This document shows positions 342-51,378 of a stretch of 64,000 nucleotides of DNA, piece after piece (position 1 is the first letter of the stretch; the number at the start of each line of letters is the position of its first letter). The stretch is from Naegleria gruberi (taxonomy: Eukaryota). Where the stretch lies: the NCBI GenBank assembly GCA_000004985.1, contig GG738880.1; one strand, written 5' to 3'. The notes under the pieces were generated by a model that saw only the letters and a program-made list of their open reading frames with translations, ran no database searches and was not told the DNA's origin. Both the position numbers and the translations under genes were made by a program.

Positions 342-391
342 NNNNNNNNNNNNNNNNNNNNNNNNNNNNNNNNNNNNNNNNNNNNNNNNNN
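342..391. other. assembly gap (run of 50 N)
   Basis: literal N characters; the sequence on either side is unrelated. Confidence 1.
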
Positions 392-39617: not shown

Positions 39618-41594
39618 GTGACACTGTATAAAAATCCTTATTTCAACAAATTGCGCATGATTTTTCAAAAACACAAAAAAATGATTTCAAGCAATAACTC
39701 AATGTATTCAGAGCCTCAAAGGATGGCGATTGAATCACCTAATAAATTGTCGATCAAGATACAAGACGATGGATGTGGGATTGTATTCTTTTCAAAGGAG
39801 AAAGATGATCGGGTTGAGGTAAAGTTTCATAGAACTATTAGGCTTCCCGAAGATGATAAGAGCTATCCACTTCCCTCATCGATGGGATTATTTGCCATTG
39901 AGAAGGTTGATGATTATTTAGAGACGGTTCCTGAGGATTTCAAAAAGCATGGAGGTGTTTTTATATGTATACAACAGAGAGAGGCATTGAGAATGGAATT
40001 TGTCAATACAAATATTCATTTCCCTCATGCTTTGAAGATTGCTTCGGGAAAGATCAATGTATTGAGTGGAGAGGAATGGGATGAAAGGATTATAGAACGC
40101 CCAGTTCAAGATTATATTGTTTCACCAATGCAGAAGAGATTGGATGGAATTAATTGTGGTGGATTCAGAAAAGTGAAACAATTTGTGGCCATGCCTTTAG
40201 GAAAGGGTTACACTCTTGAAGGGCAATTAAGTACGAATGAAGAGGAATCAATTGGAGGTATCCAGATTATCTGTTTCAACTCTGACAGTAAGAAACGAGA
40301 GGAAAAGTTTGGACAAATTATTCCAACAAAACCAACCACTCCCAAAAAACCAATTCCAACAAATAAGGTGGTTCCACCAACTTCATCTGTTTCCAAACAA
40401 CCTCCAATGGTTAAAAGTTTGTCTGTAAAACAAAAGAAATCAACACAACCCACACCAAGTCCGAGATCTACTGGTCCATATTTATCGTCACCTTCTTCTC
40501 AAAGAAGATCAGCGTCTTCCAATGAGAAGAGTGGACCAGAAGAGATGGGAATTGCTCCTGGTGGCTCAATGAAACAGACCCTAGTAGCAGATCCATATAC
40601 TCCTCAATTCTGGGATGAACAAAGTAAAGCAAGAATCTTTGTTCATTTGGTGAATACAAAGATGTATACTCAAATCACTGGTAAGAGACCAACTGTTTCA
40701 CCAATAAGCAAGGAGACATACTTAAAACTCAATTATCCATGGTATGAACATTATGTTGAAGAGTCTGGGACCATTCCATCAAGTGAAATATTATCAGATA
40801 TCAATACAGTTAAAGAGACTGATGTCTCTCTATATGGAAAATCAAAAGACTCAACCACCTCAATAACTGTTGGAAAAATCATCAAGAAGACCACTTCAAT
40901 AGAAAAGGCTGATTTTATTCCTCCACCATTGCAAACAAAATCACATGCGTTTCGTGATATTTTGCCAAGAGAAATAGTGTTTCACATTGCTACCTTCCTG
41001 ACAGTTCCTCCTCTTAATAGATTGGCTAGATGTGACAGATATTTACTCGATTTGTTCTTTAATTTAACAGTTCCAAAAGTGTACTTAATTCAAAAAAGAA
41101 AACAAGAATTCAAGCAACAAGGGATTGAGACTGCAATAGTGTCGATGAAGGATATCTTTAAGGAAGATGAAGACTCACTTGTGCAAAAACTTGTCTGGAA
41201 ACCAATGGTATTATTCTACTTCCCAAGCTATCAAGAATCGTTAAATATCAAAAACTGGATGCATGTATTGAGGAGAAGAGTAACACATCTCATGAAAAAG
41301 TGCCCAACAGCTCTCCCTCTCACCAAACAAATGTCAACAGATGCATTCAAAGTTGATATGCCAACAAAGGATAGGAGGTTCATTGAGAATTGTGAGTGGG
41401 AGTATGAATGCCCTCTCAAGACAACTGACCTTAAAGAGGCTAGTACAGGTGTAAGGTATTGTCATGTTTGTAAAGAGAAGGTCTATGAAGTATTCACCAA
41501 AGAGGACTTTAAATCTCACATCTCACAAGATCACTGTGTCATGGTTACAACAGCTCCACAAAGACGAATCATGGGAAAAATAAGAATACAATAA
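39618..41594 (+). CDS. hypothetical protein with Pro/Ser/Thr-rich linker, F-box-like motif and C-terminal Cys/His cluster (658 aa)
   Basis: Long ORF. The N-terminal ~230 aa form an unrecognised globular region (VEVKFHRTIRLPEDDKSYPLPSSMGLFAI...GGVFICIQQREALRMEF). A PTKPTTPKKPIPT linker follows. ILPREIVFHIATFLTVPPLNRLARCDRYLLDLF is F-box-like. The end is ...YCHVCKEKVYEVFTKEDFKSHISQDHC. Confidence 0.55.
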   Translation: MTLYKNPYFNKLRMIFQKHKKMISSNNSMYSEPQRMAIESPNKLSIKIQDDGCGIVFFSKEKDDRVEVKFHRTIRLPEDDKSYPLPSSMGLFAIEKVDDYLETVPEDFKKHGGVFICIQQREALRMEFVNTNIHFPHALKIASGKINVLSGEEWDERIIERPVQDYIVSPMQKRLDGINCGGFRKVKQFVAMPLGKGYTLEGQLSTNEEESIGGIQIICFNSDSKKREEKFGQIIPTKPTTPKKPIPTNKVVPPTSSVSKQPPMVKSLSVKQKKSTQPTPSPRSTGPYLSSPSSQRRSASSNEKSGPEEMGIAPGGSMKQTLVADPYTPQFWDEQSKARIFVHLVNTKMYTQITGKRPTVSPISKETYLKLNYPWYEHYVEESGTIPSSEILSDINTVKETDVSLYGKSKDSTTSITVGKIIKKTTSIEKADFIPPPLQTKSHAFRDILPREIVFHIATFLTVPPLNRLARCDRYLLDLFFNLTVPKVYLIQKRKQEFKQQGIETAIVSMKDIFKEDEDSLVQKLVWKPMVLFYFPSYQESLNIKNWMHVLRRRVTHLMKKCPTALPLTKQMSTDAFKVDMPTKDRRFIENCEWEYECPLKTTDLKEASTGVRYCHVCKEKVYEVFTKEDFKSHISQDHCVMVTTAPQRRIMGKIRIQ

Positions 41595-41829: not shown

Positions 41830-44800
41830 CTAAACAATATATGCATCATCTTGCCAGGCCATTATATTTGTTTGTTTGGCCATTGACGTGAACATTTCCT
41901 TATTTTTTCTATAATTCTTAAAAGAACTAGTGGAAATGAATCGATAGAAAGTATCATTCATGTTAATCATGATTTGTTGAGAGAGCGAATCAAAACAAGT
42001 GATGATTCTTGCTTTGAGGATTCGTTCTTCCTCTTCATTTAGACCATCCAATTGTTTGTGAAGCTCGTTTCCAAATAGAAGTGCATTGAATTGATTTTCT
42101 GGCGAGGTTGGCTCGTTGACTGGTGAAAATAATGCTTGATTACACGAAAGTAAGGCACTTCTTTTGGAGGATACATAAAAATGTAATTCTGTAAATAGAT
42201 TTTTGGTAAGGGATGGGACATTCACCTCATAGATCGATCCAGAGCATATAAAGTTCTCATTTATCCTGTCCATAAACATTGGAAGCAAAGATAAATTATC
42301 ACCCATGACAATTGACTTGTTTTGGATTAATTCCAAAAACAAGTAAAGATTTTCCAATGAAAATTCCTTCTTTGAATATTCTTCAAACAACTCAAATCCT
42401 GATTGATCTTGCAGAGTTTCAATTAATTCAGTTTGTTCAAATAATTCATCACTTGTTGCAATTGACCTCTTTTTGGTTTTAAATCTGAGCAATATTACCA
42501 AAGCAAATCCACCGAATATAAACACATAAATTGCAGAGTAGATAGTTTCGAAAATACACTGCAAAACTAGAAAATATTGAGCAGTGTCATCCTGTGAATC
42601 TTTGAATTCATGGCTCAGAATTCCACTCATCATTTGAATAAGGCAAGCTAAAAAGCAAACTAAAAAGAGAATCATTTCCATTCTGAAATATAGAGGATTA
42701 TCCAGTTGAAGTATTCTAAATAGAACATTCTTTCTTTCGAATGATAAAGATGGTCTATCAGTATTCATTTCGTCTTGTTTCCTTTCACTCAATTGAACTA
42801 CTCGAGAACTGTTTCTAATATTTGATTTTTCCTTCCTTCTTATAGAAGAAATAATATCAATCAAGATGGTGATGGAAATTGTGATAGAGCAGATGATTAT
42901 AATACCAGCATAGGTCATTGAAGTTATTCGAATGTAATCTTCAGGTAAAATCAAGTCTAATCGAACAAGTATTACCAATAACGACCAAATAATTACATTC
43001 ACCAACAGGCAAACTACAACTAGAAAGTTAAATAGAATTGGTGATGTAATTAATTTCAACATTCTAATGATATTTCTATTCGAATCATTCGTTTTTAGTT
43101 TCAATTCTTCATACAGAGCTTTCATAAATTGAAATCTAATAACCTGAATTAGATATGCAAATATTGCAGTGATATTCAAAGAATTCACAATAACCATGCA
43201 TACATTTCCAATAATATTCACACCCATCAAACTATTCGAAGGATCACTAATTTCATACACAAACAATCCCTCTTGTAAAATGGAAAGTACACTTTCGAAT
43301 AAAATAGCAATCATTCCCACAAATGGTGTAATCATTCTACTCTGCACTGGTTGCTGTTTTCTAAATATTCCTAGAAGAAACAACAATATAATTGAAACTA
43401 AACTGAAAATTACGTTAATTCCCATCTGAACATATTGAACTGACAAGACGAATGTTTGATCTATTGGAGCTTTAAACTTCATATTTGGTTTCGGTGGGTT
43501 TCCCTCGGAATATTCTGTAGAGGTCAAGTTTCTTCTTTCGTATTGGAGAAAAGTTGAGAATTTTGTTGTGTGTGAACATGAACATTGAGCTATTCCAGTA
43601 ATGTTATCGTAATAATCGAGGGAGCAGCCGTGTCCAGACCATTTCATTGAAATTTCGTCCCAGAATAGGCATGAGATGGCAAATTGTTCAACTATGGTCG
43701 TTGTCGTGTTAACAATAGTTTCGGTTTCATTATTGGAAACTGTTTCATTAATTTGAGATTCGGATAAAACTACTCGAGGATCTAATGTTAAATTTCCTCT
43801 GGAAACATCGTTAATAACAAACTGTAGAGTTATTGGATTCATTAAATCAACTTTACAACTTCAGCATTTTGAAAATATTTCAATTCTTGAATGAAAGATG
43901 ACATTTGATTTTGCATTGAAAAATTATCATTTCTGATGTTTCTTTCATATGTTATTAGTGATAGTCCAAGATTAGTTCCAAATCCACCATATTTTCCAGC
44001 AATTTCTCTCAAATCCAATTGAATGTTTCCTCCATTAGTTTCTAATAGAAATTTAGTAGAGTTTTGAGCTAAATTTTGCAAGCTTCTTGCGCCCCTAGTT
44101 AACACAAAGGAAGAAAAGGTAGTATTCAGTCCAGAGGTTGAAAATTTAGTATAGGGAAGATTAGTGACATCACTGTCAGTGCTCAAAACTTTAGGAATTT
44201 CTGATTTCAACATTAATTTCGTAAATGACAAGATTAAATTTTCAGTTTTCCGCATTTCATCATCAACTAACATCATTCCTTTTTGAGAAATAGTTATTGA
44301 GCTAGAAGATGAACCAAAAATATTTGCCAACAAACTACTTGCTGTCAATTTCGCATCTTGTGTCAAACTAGATTTCACATATCCGTACGAATCTATTTCT
44401 TTCTGATATAAATCCAAAGTATTATACAAAAAACTATTCACACTATTCGAAAGCTGATTCAAAACCTTCTTATCCTTCATTATTGAAGATTCGGATGAAA
44501 TTGAATTCAAAACTTTCAATGAAGAATCAGCATTTGTAATATCAATATTGAGATTATTAATTAAATTCAATATTAGATTGGTGTTATTCGTATTCGATAG
44601 AGCTGACTGATCAAAAAGAAGGACGTGTTTCGAATAATCGCTTAGGTATTCCAATTCTTTTGAAAGAGGATTGACCTGAGCTGTGGCCACTCTCAAGGAT
44701 TGTTCGAATCCTTCTGAATCTTTTACAAAGATTACAATATCAATGGGTGAGGTTGACCATGAATTTCTAGAAAGTGATTTGAATAGATAGGGAAGAGGAA

Positions 44801-47759
44801 GCTTTGAAACTGGTTCTGTTGAATATTCTGTTACTCTAATTAAGGAAGATGTTGATGGAATGCCATTGGTGGACTTGTCTTGATATTTGTTGTAAAATCC
44901 GAAAGCATACGAAAGTGGTCGAAGGTTTAAATTATTCACAATCCATTCAGGTGAAGAAACAAAGAATGAATCCACCACAGCCATTCCCTCTTTTGGACTC
45001 AATTCAATTCTATTAAAATAATCTTCTGGATAAATTGCAGGTTTTGTAATGATAATTGAAATTCTCGATTTTTCAAAGGATTGAAATGAATATCTTATTG
45101 AGAGAATTGTAACACTAATTTGAAATACAAACTCTGATCCGTCATCAAATGCATCCAAATTCATATTTGGGAATGGATTTGAAATATTCATTTGTAATAT
45201 TGGGTTGAGTTGAATAGTGGAATCGTCTCTATATCTCTGAGCTAGTATTGGTCCACTATTTTCAAGTATTCGAATTGGGGTTTTGAAATCTGATGAATTG
45301 AATACAGTTATAGTTGATTGGTAGTTCAATTGACAAGTAGTGTTATCTAATGAGAATCCAACACAATCGTTCAATAGAAAGTCAACTCCTTCAGGATAAT
45401 TAAACGAAACTCTGTTAATTAGAATGGAAATATCTAAATTCTTGGTAAATGCCATAGTGGAAGACAACTTGTAAGTTTGCACATTTGTAATTAGCACATC
45501 TTGAGGCTGAATTAGTTTCTTTGGTATGAACAATACAGTAGAAAGAGTATTCAAAAGAATATCTTGTGAATATCTCTCACTAAGCACTCCCCGAATCAAA
45601 AATTCATAATAATATTCTCTTTTTAGAGAAGAAACATCCAAACTAAACTCTTGACTCTCCACAATCCATGCATTTTCATAAGAATTGTACATGTAATCGG
45701 TACAATTAGAACACCAAACTCTATACGAAACTAAACCTGATTGAATACTGCTCCCAATCTTGAATGAAATCAACCCTTCACTCCCATTGACATTCGATCC
45801 ATTCAATGCTATTTCTAAATTAGCTGCAACTCTTGAACTATCAACATATGAATCACATAAACTTCCATAAAAGGTTCCATTCTCAGTCTTTTTACATTCA
45901 CAAGTATCGATATTGGAACAAACTCCATTTCCTGAACAAGCATTCGAATCTGTATTTGCAATTCCCCAACAAGAATATAATTCACAACTGTCTCCGTAAT
46001 ATCCATCCTGACAGGAACATTTCAATTCTTTGGTGCAGGTTCCTCTCTTCATACATTGAGGAATGATAGAGTTGGGTTGGCATTTGTAAGAGTTACACTG
46101 CTCTCCTGAATATCCAGTGAGGCATTCACAATGATCTGGACCTGTGCATTGTCCGAAACCAGAACAAACTAAACTATCGTTTGAGAATTTTCCATAACAT
46201 TGAAAGAGATCACATTGAGTCCCAACTCTTCCACTCTCTTCAGCACATAGACAATTGTTAGGCGCTACACAAGATCCAAATCCTGAACAAACTTTTTCAT
46301 TATTGTAAGGAATTTCATAACAATCAAAATTTTCACAAGTCGTTCCATAATAGCCCAATTGACAAGAACAATTTCCAGGTGAAATGCAACTTCCCCTTCC
46401 TGAGCATATGAGAGATTTACCTGTATCCAACAACAATACAGAAACTCCTCCACATTCATAATCATTACAAGTCACTCCAGAGAAACCCTCAAAACAAGAG
46501 CAGTTTCCTCCAACTTGACAATCTCCATTTCCAGAGCAAACTATTAGTGAGCTTGCCTTAATTCCATAACATTGACTTTCGTATTGACAGGCATCTCCAT
46601 AGAAACCATTTTTACATGAGCATTGATTCAGTCCAGTACATTTTCCATTCCCATAACAAACATTTGAATCATTACTCGGCACCCCATAACAATTCATAAA
46701 ACCACTGATGGTCATTAGATAACCATATGGTATGGTGGAACTGAGTGTTGGTCCACCACCAGCAAACAATAAGGAATTTCCCATATTAAGCACTGATATT
46801 CCATACGCAGAGTAAGGTGAGTTGAATGAAGTAACATTCTCCCAAATTGACATGTTATTAAGGTTAGCTCTAAGCATACTCCTTCCTAAAGATCCAGAAA
46901 AGATGTAGGCATAATTCGCAGAAATGAAAGAAGCACTTCCAAAAACTGAATTGGGTAGTGAAATGGGTGAAAGTTTCCAAACAGAATTTGATGATGCATT
47001 ACTTGTCGTGAGAGAATCCAATTGATCAAATGAAGTGTAATAGATTGTCTTGTAATAGTTTAGTAAATCACTTCCTCCTCCAACAATGTAAATCATTCTT
47101 CCTACGCTAAAGACACTAGCTGCAAATATGGCATTTGGAAATGTCCCAACTCTTTGCCAAATTGTTGGGGAGCTCAAGTTGGCCATATACACAGCTTTAG
47201 AATATTCTGAATTGAATGAACCTCCTATTAGAAAGAGGTTCTTCTCTGTTCTAAAGAAAACTGGCATTGTGCAAGAATAGGGAAGCTCCTCATCCAATAC
47301 TGAAAACGACTGCAAATCAGACAGTTTTGCTCGCATTATCTTTGATGTTCCACCTCCAAATATATAAGCATAATCAATTCCATTCAAGTTCAAAACTTGA
47401 AATGCATAGCCATAGGCCTTTTGAGGTAACTTTCCAATCACTGAGAATGGCCCCACAGTGTCAAGCGTAATTTGGGAGTAATTTGAATAACCTCCATTGA
47501 TCAGCTGGCTTGTAATTTTGCTCGAAATTGAAACGTTTGATGATTGAATATTGTCAAGAGGATTGTTTCCATCAAAACCTCCGAATGAATAAAGTTTCAT
47601 TGAGGATGAATCGAAGAAGAGAGTCGAATAGGAACCAGAAGCTTGGGGAAATACATTGAGTTGTGGGGAGAGGGTGAAGGGTTCTTCCTCGATTCCCATT
47701 AAAAAATTGTTGGATAGCTGAATGAGAGTTATAAAGATGAAGAGAAATAATCGAAGCAT
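41830..47759 (-). CDS. adhesion-GPCR-like receptor with C-terminal RGS domain: signal peptide, Kelch-type beta-propeller, ~10 tenascin-type EGF repeats, long extracellular stalk, GPS motif, 7TM, RGS. Proposed join(43857..47759, 41830..43821) with a 35-nt intron 43822..43856.
   Basis: Upstream ORF: hydrophobic MLRLFLFIFITLIQL; Kelch-like blades (LYSFGGFDGNNPL, YAYIFGGG, LFLIGGSFN, MIYIVGGGSD, SLLFAGGGP); repeats of CxGxGxCxxxxxCxCxxGFxGxxC. Downstream ORF: GPS motif CLFWDEISMKWSGHGCSLDYYDNITGIAQCSCSHTTKFSTF, 7 predicted TM helices, and the RGS box SGFELFEEYSKKEFSLENLYLFLEL...DTFYRFISTSSFKNY. The ORFs are in different frames and overlap as TAATG. A GTAAAG...TACAG intron removes the stop and joins ...NAEV|FVIND in phase. 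Confidence 0.65.
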
Positions 47760-47929
47760 TTTAAATTGATGAAGATGTCTGTTGAAAGTCCAGTAAACTA
47801 GTATTTGTGAAGTGTACCACTATGTGGAGATAGACTTGTCAACGGAGGTCAGAAAACTAAAAAGGAGGTGGACCAAGAAGAGTCGGCAGTAGAAAACCCA
47901 CCTCAGCATAATTTTCTGTAGCAAAAAGT

Positions 47930-48002
47930 TATACCCTGTGGGACTCGAACCCACAACCCCCGGCTCCGTAGGCCGATGCTCTTCCAATTGAGCCAAGGGT
48001 AC
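47930..48002 (-). tRNA. tRNA-Arg (anticodon ACG)
   Basis: Reverse complement: GTACCCT TG GCTC AATTGGAA GAGC A TCGGC CTACGGA GCCGG GGGTT GTGGG TTCGAGT CCCAC AGGGTAT A. All four stems pair, and the D-loop, T-loop (TTCGAGT) and anticodon loop are canonical. Confidence 0.85.
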
Positions 48003-48118
48003 TTACATTAATATAAAGCAAAATCCCATTATACACATTCAGCCTTAATGGGTTTTGTAAGGAGATTATTTTCTTAATGCAATCTAATTGGTTTTTAATT
48101 GATAAACGAAAGATGCGT

Positions 48119-49246
48119 TTATTCTTCTGTTTTGTGAACTTTACAAGAATGTAAGTGAACAACCAATCTGTCAGGTTCGAATTTTCTATTGCAATTTGGG
48201 CATTGAGCCATCGAAGCAATATAGATGGTTCTTGCTTCTGTGTTGTAACTCTTGTAAGATTCTGCTGTATCGTCGGAACCAGGAATTGGTAACACTGGTG
48301 GTTCGGGAACATCCTTCAGTAAATCTTCAGGAAGACCAGAGTGAGCCCAATATGACTTTCTCTTCTCTATACATTCTGGAATGTGGATTGGGAGTGATCT
48401 TGTTCCATATTCTTGACCACAACAGTAACAGAAGAGCATCTTCTTTGTCAAGTGTTTGTTCCAATTCTTTTGAATTGTTTTAGCTGCTTGTTGTTCCTCC
48501 CAAGTGTGCCCATCTTTATCCTTGCATGTGGTTAAATGCTTCGTTAGGCGATCACATTCAAAACCTCTGTCACAAATTGGACAATGGACCAAACTGTATT
48601 TAGAGAATAATTCTTGAGCTTCTTCATTATATGTGTCAACTTCTTGTTGAGTGCCATTTTCAGAATCAGGTATTGGAGCTGATGGAGGGCTTGGAAGAGA
48701 TTTTGGAACCAATCCTTTTGGCAAGTTGGCCTTGTAATCGTTCAGTCTTTGTTCTGGACAATCGTTCAAGTGAATTGGTAGAGAGGTTGGTCCAAACTTT
48801 TGTCCACAAGTGTAACAAATTAACATTCTTGAAACTGTCTTCTTCTTGGCCGCATGTTCCTTATACTTCTTTTGAATGACAGAAGCAGCCTTATGTTCAT
48901 CATCACCATATTCTACATTTTCAAAGTTTTCCTCCTCTTCTGGGTCCTTCAATTTAGGTGGTTCTGGGCTTTCATTTGGTATTACTGGTTTGTGTTCCTC
49001 TTCCTTTTGTTTGACTTTCTTCGGAGGAATGGCATGTTCCTTCTCCTCATGACCACCTTCCTGTCTCTCCTCCTTAGGATGTGGTTTTTCAACTTTGTGA
49101 GACCCAGTTGATTCATTATGTGTTGGTGGAGGAGGAGCATGGTCTTCTTCCTTTTGTTTCTTTGCTACTTGAATGCTTTTTTCAGTAGACTCCACTGGCT
49201 TTTGTTGTTCTTCAACGTTTTTGGCACTAGAAGCTCCACAACCCAT
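48119..49246 (-). CDS. zinc-finger C2HC-type (ZC2HC1/FAM164-like) protein with three C2HC fingers and an N-terminal myristoylation-type MGCGAS start (ORF extends to 49342)
   Basis: Three repeats of L.C..CG..FG..SLPIH...C and a matching CP.C.R.F...RL..HL..C pattern: CYTCGQKFGPTSLPIHLNDCPEQ, CPICDRGFECDRLTKHLTTCK, CYCCGQEYGTRSLPIHIPECIEK, CPNCNRKFEPDRLVVHLHSCK. The probable start MGCGASSAKN follows a Lys/Glu-rich region. Confidence 0.7.
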   Translation of the reverse strand: MGCGASSAKNVEEQQKPVESTEKSIQVAKKQKEEDHAPPPPTHNESTGSHKVEKPHPKEERQEGGHEEKEHAIPPKKVKQKEEEHKPVIPNESPEPPKLKDPEEEENFENVEYGDDEHKAASVIQKKYKEHAAKKKTVSRMLICYTCGQKFGPTSLPIHLNDCPEQRLNDYKANLPKGLVPKSLPSPPSAPIPDSENGTQQEVDTYNEEAQELFSKYSLVHCPICDRGFECDRLTKHLTTCKDKDGHTWEEQQAAKTIQKNWNKHLTKKMLFCYCCGQEYGTRSLPIHIPECIEKRKSYWAHSGLPEDLLKDVPEPPVLPIPGSDDTAESYKSYNTEARTIYIASMAQCPNCNRKFEPDRLVVHLHSCKVHKTEE

Positions 49247-49566
49247 CTTTTCCGATTTTTTTCTGCTAATGGTTTTGTGGCAGTGTTTGTTGTAGTTGTT
49301 TGGTATAACAGCTGTTTTTTTTAAACTTTTATAAAACATCAAAACGATTTTTCTTAAACCGTCGAATTGTAGTTAGTTTGGGAGGGAAAAAAAGTTCCTT
49401 AGTAAATTCAAAGGAGCATTGATAAACTTTGTTACAAAAAGTATTCTTTGAAAATTTACGAACATTAAATTAACCCACAGCTTTAATATTAATTTTAAAT
49501 TGTTATAGACCAGAAGAATGTGTCATCAACACGCAATCAAACTGTAATCAAAATCAACATAAAAAA

Positions 49567-50196: not shown

Positions 50197-51378
50197 TTAG
50201 AAATTTGAAATTCTCTTCTTTCTCTTGAAATAGACAAATGTACCAATAATCCACAAACATAAACTGTACCAAGTGGCCATATAAGCAACGTGAGTAGCAG
50301 GTGTAATGTAGAATTTCATGTAATCATCAGGAATTGCGAGCATTGGATACTTGGTTGGTTGAGCCTCTGAAGCTTTGAGAGAGTGTTCACTTGTTTCCTT
50401 TTCATCATAGACAAAGTTTGGAATGTGATGGAATTGATCCAAGAGAAGTGGAATATATGACATTTCATAATATTTGGCAATTGAGAATAGATCCATGGCA
50501 ATGAATTTGTTTGTTTTTCCATCATAGCTCTCAGAGATACCAGCTCCAAGATATTCTCCAGGTCTGATAATTGCTGTGATTTTCTCAGTATTAGTTGGAT
50601 CAGTCATCTTCTTTTCAAAGTCTTGCGGTTCCGGATTTCCATGATGGTAGACAGTCTTTGGAACCCAACCTCTATTCACCATTACAACTTCACTGTTAAA
50701 TTATTAGCTCAATTATTCCTTAATTAAAACCTACCCATCCTTCAAAACAAATGGTGTCAAAATAAAGTATCCCATCTCTCCCATTGTAGTTGGAAGATCC
50801 AATCTCTTGGTGAGAGGACTCTTTCTCAAACCCACCACAATTTCCTTACTATAATCAAAATAACCTTCCAATGTTACAATTCTATGTACATATTCATCCT
50901 TTGCAGGATTAATTGGATCATAATTTTCCTCTGTTTTTTCATGCAATGATGGTGAAGATTCTGGTTCCTCCACAGGAGATGTCTTTAACATTTCAGAGCC
51001 ATTGTATGGAATTGGGTCTTGAGCAAGAGTGACTTCTCTCAATATAATTTGATCCTTCTTCCACAAGTATCTTCTTGTTTGCCAAATTCCCAAACAAAAT
51101 GTAGTAATTGCAGGAATGCCAAAGAAGAGGAATTGAGTAAAACTGATGAATGGTTCCTTCTTTTCACCTCCATTATTATTAGAGTATTCATCCTTGTTTG
51201 ATTCCCTTCTCTTGTCCTCTTCTTCTTTTCTTTCCTTTCTTCTCTCCTCTGCTCTGTCCACTAATCTAATGGTAGCATAGTCAGCTGATTTGAATCCAAT
51301 ATTGAAAAGTCCGATATTGTTTGTCCTCTTATTGTTCAGAAGTACGGATGGTACTCTAGTGAGGCTCCTTCTCATCAT
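50197..51378 (-). CDS. SURF1: SURF1 (cytochrome c oxidase assembly factor), 2 exons: 50735..51378 and 50197..50692, 42-nt intron
   Basis: Exon 1 has TM1 FLFFGIPAITTFCLGIWQTRRYLWKK and ...GYFILTPFVLKDG|GTAGGT. The intron ends ..ttaaCAG. Exon 2 begins (G)EVVMVNRGWVPK and ends ...YITPATHVAYMATWYSLCLWIIGTFVYFKRK (TM2). These match the conserved SURF1 blocks (TPF...ILVNRGFVPRK...TWY), recalled from memory. Confidence 0.8.

Follow-up and report, generated by a model that had tools for sequence, protein, structure and literature searches.

Which reading joins two overlapping open reading frames (ORFs) into one receptor is the question raised by positions 41830..47759 of a 64,000-nucleotide (nt) stretch of Naegleria gruberi DNA (contig GG738880.1; the whole stretch is called the window below). 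According to the ORF listing, two minus-strand ORFs lie here in different frames, one of 1305 aa (43842..47759, ORF1) and one of 670 aa (41830..43842, ORF2), which have the A of TAATG in common. An earlier interpretation of the letters without database searches, the sequence-only reading, had described these ORFs and their overlap correctly and had connected them by a cryptic 35-nt intron. Based on our analysis the region is very probably a single N. gruberi gene of ~1,975 codons that belongs to a family combining a GAIN domain and GPS motif with a seven-transmembrane (7TM) core and an RGS box (GAIN/GPS-7TM-RGS), and whose frame is broken by the insertion or deletion (indel) of one nucleotide, not by an intron.

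Stop trinucleotides amount to 6% on the minus strand, and the probability of finding 670 open codons by chance is ~1e-18, that of finding 1305 ~1e-35. As openness of such length by chance is excluded, both ORFs are coding sequence. The 1305-aa ORF matches a 'predicted protein' of N. gruberi with 100% identity, and the final 312 residues of the 670-aa ORF are XP_002675122 (NAEGRDRAFT_69765) from the same 416,450-bp N. gruberi scaffold, a model that begins at an internal Met within the third intracellular loop. Public annotation splits the locus into these 1305-aa and 312-aa models and leaves the GPS motif and transmembrane helices (TM) 1-5, i.e. 358 codons, unannotated. Sequence comparison supports the view that both ORFs come from a single gene with the layout Kelch/EGF/stalk/GPS/7TM/RGS, since N. 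gruberi paralogs span the whole layout as single proteins, in line with the single continuous architecture proposed earlier. Paralog P0002 (1405 aa), for instance, aligns in one high-scoring segment pair (1e-159) that extends from the EGF repeats through the complete RGS box.

Two features are decisive for the way in which the ORFs are joined, the evidence involving a family hidden Markov model (HMM) and a position-specific scoring matrix (PSSM):

43845..43860, minus strand: frame-break zone with one base missing or two extra (sequence, variant scoring, alignment)
43822..43856, minus strand: proposed 35-nt 'intron' GTAAAG..TACAG, rejected; coding in the ORF2 frame, K-V-D-L-M-N-P-I-T-L-Q (HMM, alignment, PSSM)

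The ORF1 frame stops at TAA 43842-43844, and the ORF2 frame extends upstream only as far as TGA 43861-43863. At the break the upstream frame reads ..K-Y-F-Q-N-A-E-V-V-K-L-I-stop, and above its ATG the ORF2 frame is open back to the TGA and reads S-C-K-V-D-L-M-N-P-I-T-L-Q-F-V-I-N. VVKL from the upstream frame and DLMNPITLQFVIN from the downstream frame match consecutive conserved residues, the latter lying mostly inside the proposed intron; paralog P0008 reads ..KYYQNSEIVKLNDLDSPISLQFGINS.. at the same site. As the switch between the frames is confined to 16 nt (43845-43860), no intron can keep both conserved segments. Candidate spots for the indel are the AAA run 43852-43854, G43848 and the TTT run 43844-43846.

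In an alignment of 36 paralogs the in-frame intron models of 35, 38 and 53 nt all lose the motif [VI]xLxxLxxP[IL]xLxF, which is regained by frameshift repair. The family HMM, from which the window sequence had been left out, assigns 633.2-636.9 bits to the frameshift-repaired versions and 623.9, 620.0 and 622.8 bits to the 35-, 38- and 53-nt intron versions, respectively, a preference of 9-17 bits for repair. Moreover, with a PSSM of nine motif columns DLMNPITLQ scores 14.4 bits and ranks first among the 76,683 stop-free 9-mers of the six-frame window translation (p ~1.3e-5), and LDPRVVLSE, which the intron model places at the motif, scores -20 bits. In a structural model of the P0008 GAIN region the motif corresponds to strands E291-293 and E302-308, with a predicted local distance difference test value (pLDDT) >90. 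As judged from these comparisons, the repaired reading, ..KYFQNAEVVKL continued by DLMNPITLQFVINDV.., regains a conserved pair of GAIN β-strands. The 35-nt segment is conserved coding sequence, and we conclude that an indel of one base has broken the frame.

A cryptic spliceosomal intron at 43822..43856 (GTAAAG..TACAG), or its 38-nt variant, which would join ..NAEV to FVINDV.., has canonical GT..AG boundaries, and the sequence-only reading was right in that its removal restores the frame, giving a 1964-aa product that aligns to the paralogs gap-free at the junction itself. Additionally, the branch-like/acceptor stretch ATAACTCTACAG resembles ATAATTTAACAG of another candidate intron in the window. 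Nevertheless, splicing would delete the motif that is kept in the 36 paralogs and that the interior of the segment encodes in the downstream frame better than any other 9-mer, the family HMM argues for frameshift repair, and the segment is shorter than every other intron that was reported in the window by the sequence-only reading. The GT..AG alternatives of 35, 38 and 53 nt coexist in this short stretch, and as three in-frame combinations exist, finding one such pair is uninformative. Overall, splicing at this site is unlikely. An intron with the AG of GTAAAG (43851-43852) as its acceptor was also considered and rejected, as it has no in-phase donor and would remove the conserved ELKYFQNAEV. 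The other candidate just mentioned (GTAGGT..ATAATTTAACAG, 42 nt, 50693-50734, minus strand) bridges ORFs of 222 and 167 codons in an ORF-bridging scan, which proved non-discriminating, and is probably one of the short introns of the sequence-only reading.

Two independent genes, one for a secreted Kelch/EGF protein of 1305 aa and one for a membrane protein further downstream, would agree with the separate GenBank predictions of 1305 and 312 aa. However, the 1305-aa product would terminate inside the GAIN domain, the 312-aa model with its start in the third intracellular loop omits GPS and TM1-5 although the 358 codons are open and conserved, and both halves are found in one chain in every full-length relative examined, so that two genes are highly improbable. 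Least probable of all is that ribosomes shift frame in a programmed manner (-1 or +2) where ORF1 ends in ATT-TAA and in this way produce the full-length receptor from an unedited mRNA: the frames do overlap at the stop codon within a U/A-rich stretch (GAUUUAAUG) and both ORFs are fully intact, but a canonical X XXY YYZ slippery heptamer is absent from the zero frame, the inspected family members need no frameshifting, the aligned paralogs being single continuous chains, and we know of no frequent programmed frameshifting in Naegleria.

As to the origin of the one-base indel, an artefact of assembly or sequencing, with the gene itself intact, and a very recent or allelic lesion are about equally probable; an old pseudogene is disfavoured because both halves are otherwise intact. 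Word-indexed searches with the family alignment and the repaired junction peptide returned no public protein that spans the junction, and a metagenome scan for the junction DNA, with one extra base allowed at either homopolymer, gave 0 matches. Several points weigh against a frame-broken gene for a regulated receptor. The arguments that exclude splicing are purely comparative, the indel can be placed no more exactly than 43845-43860, a frame-restoring GT..AG pair does exist, and MAFFT aligns the spliced product to the paralogs with a 7-aa insertion. The frameshift, if real and fixed, would make the gene a functionless pseudogene. Furthermore, the GAIN fold is seen in a model of paralog P0008 (42% identity) and not of the locus protein itself, and activity as GTPase-activating protein (GAP), cleavage, an external partner and the direction of regulation are ascribed to the locus protein by analogy only.

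Read as one frameshift-broken gene, the locus comprises the following features in addition to the frame-break zone:

47691..47759, minus strand: start codon and signal-peptide-like hydrophobic N-terminus, aa 1-23 (ORF listing; hydropathy segment aa 2-23)
46695..47672, minus strand: Kelch-type β-propeller region, aa ~30-355, weakly supported (Pfam on a fragment)
45852..46685, minus strand: seven teneurin/tenascin-type EGF repeats, aa ~359-636 (Pfam and repeat count)
44652..45851, minus strand: family-conserved stalk without assigned domain, aa ~637-1036 (aligns with paralog P0002)
43848..44651, minus strand: upstream part of GAIN (helical subdomain A and most of β subdomain B), in the ORF1 frame through ..NAEVVKL (family profile and paralog model)
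43549..43671, minus strand: GPS motif CLFWDEISMKWSGHGC..CSCSHTTKFSTF (Pfam GPS, 31.4 bits)
42466..43458, minus strand: 7TM core with the fold of a G-protein-coupled receptor (GPCR), ORF2 aa ~129-459, long third intracellular loop
41908..42435, minus strand: cytoplasmic RGS box, ORF2 aa ~470-645, with a ~59-aa insert (Pfam, phmmer, family profile, Foldseek)
41830..41832, minus strand: stop codon of the gene (ORF listing)

Recognition of the domains by Pfam depends on the query. With the full-length product EGF is reported, Kelch is weak and RGS falls just under its cut-off, and neither GPS nor any 7TM family is reported; on fragments only, GPS reaches 25.8-31.4 bits (cut-off 22.5) and RGS 29.3 bits (cut-off 23.9), in agreement with the GPS and RGS assignments of the sequence-only reading. 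A family GAIN profile built without the window sequence matches ADGRL3 (6vhh_B) with E 4.3e-10 over 251 positions, as well as ADGRF1, ADGRG1, ADGRG3, CELSR1, ADGRE5 and ADGRG2, and when the window sequence is included the profile matches ADGRG2 with E 1.1e-8 from GAIN subdomain B to about TM1. The structure was predicted for the closest paralog, P0008 from N. gruberi (aa 1660-2062, model me8456d606467), and this AlphaFold model (pLDDT 83.9, predicted template modelling score (pTM) 0.81) bears out the GAIN fold, its best matches in the PDB according to Foldseek being ADGRB2 (8oek, 1e-10), BAI3 (4dlo, 1.3e-10) and GPR56 (5kvm, 3e-5).

Within the GPS motif a putative scissile H-T↓T triad is found at 43564-43572 (minus strand), followed by the Stachel-like peptide TKFSTFLQY. 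The triad of the locus fits the canonical GPS pattern H-X-S/T, without which no cleavage occurs but which does not by itself ensure it (PMC13062082). H-T-T is present in 50 of 52 family members (P0002-P0156), and this near-invariance in the sequences suggests that the cleavage site is constrained and possibly functional, the residue at P1 being unusual. With a GAIN fold directly N-terminal to TM1 and a GPS that carries an H-X-S/T triad, the GAIN/GPS assignment is sound. The P0008 GAIN model also matches chains of axonemal doublet microtubules from Chlamydomonas, human, bovine and Leishmania structures (8glv_AE, 8j07_k3, 9fqr_Hn and 9y6s_9K; E 1e-6 to 8e-5), which, as far as such a model goes, hints at GAIN-like folds in ciliary proteins.

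The hydropathy profile contains a signal-peptide-like N-terminus and seven hydrophobic helices, as the sequence-only reading had stated. The AlphaFold2 model of the downstream ORF (663 aa; pLDDT 79.6, pTM 0.75) has seven confident TM helices that are followed by the RGS helical bundle. A Pfam search with the 335-aa 7TM core, however, yielded neither 7tm_2 nor another 7TM family but one weak, unrelated sub-threshold match, and for this core the Foldseek search of the model is unspecific, ADGRG2 appearing only at rank 34 with E 0.1. In the model the 7TM core is a genuine GPCR fold with no demonstrable membership of class B2. Thus, of the adhesion-GPCR module proposed by the sequence-only reading the GAIN/GPS part stands and the 7TM part does not: the label 'adhesion-GPCR-like' is valid for the GAIN/GPS part of the ectodomain only.

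The RGS box of the window matches RGS16 with E 4.7e-4 (phmmer), in two alignment pieces that flank the ~59-aa insert, and the family profile matches RGS16/5/4 with E 1e-9. Foldseek pairs the RGS part of the model with RGS1/16/8 at a TM-score, normalised to the target, of ~0.65. The Gα-contact motifs EFSxEN, EVN and D(T/S)(F/Y)xRF are retained (the last as DTFxRF), the E, N, D and R columns being invariant across nine paralogs.

The Kelch-type propeller of the sequence-only reading is recovered weakly on a fragment (Kelch_1, 23.7 bits; cut-off 20.1), and Kelch_KLHDC2 is below its cut-off (E 2e-9). The EGF repeats are well recognized in the full-length product (EGF_2, E 2.7e-24; EGF_Teneurin, E 4.4e-14), but instead of the suggested ~10 tenascin/laminin-type repeats the region contains 7 repeat units with 42 Cys. 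The 439-aa stalk, scanned as a fragment, matched no Pfam family.

The locus belongs to a large, lineage-expanded family, whose members in Naegleria are called '7TM RGS' proteins and which includes many paralogs in N. gruberi. A profile search of 1.84 billion representatives found 499 relatives, 80 of them at E <1e-30, mostly of 1,200-2,600 aa and matching at their C-terminal end; those with names are N. gruberi and N. fowleri proteins, among them D2V990 ('GPS domain-containing protein' in UniProt), and the rest are unnamed metagenome and Logan proteins. Full-span homology and the succession of seven TM helices and a C-terminal RGS box place the locus in the 7TM-RGS family. A tblastn search found a single family gene inside the window; two more members, NAEGRDRAFT_80461 (2067 aa) and XP_002675102 ('RGS-domain-containing protein', 1577 aa), are located outside it on the same 416,450-bp scaffold.

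The sequence-only reading had regarded the combination of domains as undescribed and had taken amoebozoans for the relatives of the organism. N. gruberi is a heterolobosean, and the same design has been published for N. fowleri, which has 28 '7TM RGS' proteins (Nf 7TM RGS1-4 and 24 others), several of them with EGF and GPS in the ectodomain; lectin ectodomains were noted there as well (Bosch et al., J Biol Chem 2022, PMC9283941). The locus shares with them the logic of an EGF/carbohydrate-binding ectodomain, GPS, 7TM and C-terminal RGS, and FDP41_005437, FDP41_004429 and FDP41_008291 of N. fowleri are its direct homologues over GPS, 7TM and RGS; no specific Nf orthologue could be assigned to it. 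In contrast to the N. fowleri proteins it is from N. gruberi, has a Kelch-like N-terminal module and a ~59-aa RGS insert, and is represented by a frameshift-broken gene model. The EGF/GPS/7TM/RGS architecture is thus already known from N. fowleri, and the locus is a further, mis-annotated member. Isolated N. fowleri RGS boxes are selective GAPs for Nf Gα2, 3, 5 and 7, self-activating subunits included (PMC9283941).

Fusions of 7TM and RGS are also known from plants (AtRGS1; PMC3386157), Trichomonas, stramenopiles, chytrids, filastereans and ichthyosporeans (PMC3971589), i.e. from plants, many protists and some fungal lineages. Like AtRGS1 and other 7TM-RGS proteins, the locus has a 7TM core fused to a cytoplasmic C-terminal RGS box, the likeness being one of domain layout. 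AtRGS1 has a short extracellular N-terminus only, without GAIN/GPS, EGF repeats or propeller. With metazoan adhesion GPCRs (ADGRL3, ADGRB2/3, ADGRG1/2, ADGRF1) the locus has in common a large adhesive ectodomain, GAIN/GPS immediately before TM1, four GPS cysteines, two tryptophans, an H-X-T triad and the subsequent Stachel-like hydrophobic peptide. It differs from them by its H-T-T triad in place of H-L-T/S, by an RGS (GAP) box as cytoplasmic output and by its heterolobosean lineage, and from class B2 in a 7TM core that 7tm_2 does not recognize. In polycystin-1 the membrane core has 11 TM and is related to channels, and an RGS box is absent. As in the polycystin-1/REJ family, GAIN/GPS appears here as a portable module ahead of differing membrane cores (PMC3321182); no Pfam match to PKD or REJ was obtained with fragments of the locus protein.

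Domain content, family membership, the frame break and the family's GAIN, GPCR and RGS folds were established directly, and the mechanism was derived by analogy with the 7TM RGS proteins of N. fowleri and with AtRGS1 of plants. 7TM-RGS proteins are thought to act as receptor-regulated GAPs for self-activating Gα (PMC3386157, PMC3971589). By this analogy the large Kelch/EGF ectodomain would engage an external partner, and the GAIN/GPS module may cleave itself at H-T↓T, retaining the Stachel-like peptide TKFSTFLQY as a tether. GAIN/GPS and this peptide may then gate the 7TM core, which would relay its state to the membrane-tethered RGS box, and the latter would speed up GTP hydrolysis on Gα, some of it self-activating, and set the lifetime of Gα-GTP. 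If the RGS box acts as GAP on Gα, ligand or force would thus take effect via a change in GAP activity and not via catalysis of nucleotide exchange, i.e. the receptor is probably a ligand- or force-regulated membrane-tethered GAP.

More tentatively, and with the balance of probability against it, we speculate that the Naegleria family constitutes a working 'inverse adhesion GPCR' with a self-cleaving GAIN domain (H-T↓T), a tethered TxF[ST]xF peptide that gates the 7TM core, and a fused GAP output on self-activating Gα. If true, GAIN-to-7TM mechanosensory coupling would exist outside Amorphea on a non-class-B 7TM scaffold, implying either an ancient origin or an independent assembly of the module. 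The resemblance to adhesion GPCRs has been remarked on for N. fowleri in the literature, there only as a resemblance, and we found neither the conservation of the H-T-T triad nor the non-7tm_2 core described. The triad and the non-7tm_2 scaffold behind GAIN are the most interesting loose ends. Altogether, the interest lies not in the locus but in the family, which combines a GAIN/GPS ectodomain with GAP output in a free-living organism related to a lethal human pathogen and has been published since 2022. For the locus, the corrected gene model merges two partial 'predicted proteins' with 358 codons that lacked annotation into one receptor of ~1,975 aa. In general, a bridging in-frame GT..AG pair does little to establish an intron between two ORFs; here, comparison with paralogs reversed the call.

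In the neighbourhood, a tRNA-Arg(ACG) gene is located at 47930-48002 (minus strand), only ~170 nt upstream of the start codon of the receptor, and a 127-aa 'ORF' at 47929-48312 opens with its spurious translation. The adjoining 407-aa ORF (48119-49342, minus strand) has four zinc-knuckle-like Cys-Cys..His..Cys repeats with IQ-like segments, and on the other side of the receptor a 658-aa ORF (39618-41594, plus strand) has a Pro/Ser-rich middle. A run of 50 N at window positions 342-391 is an assembly gap.

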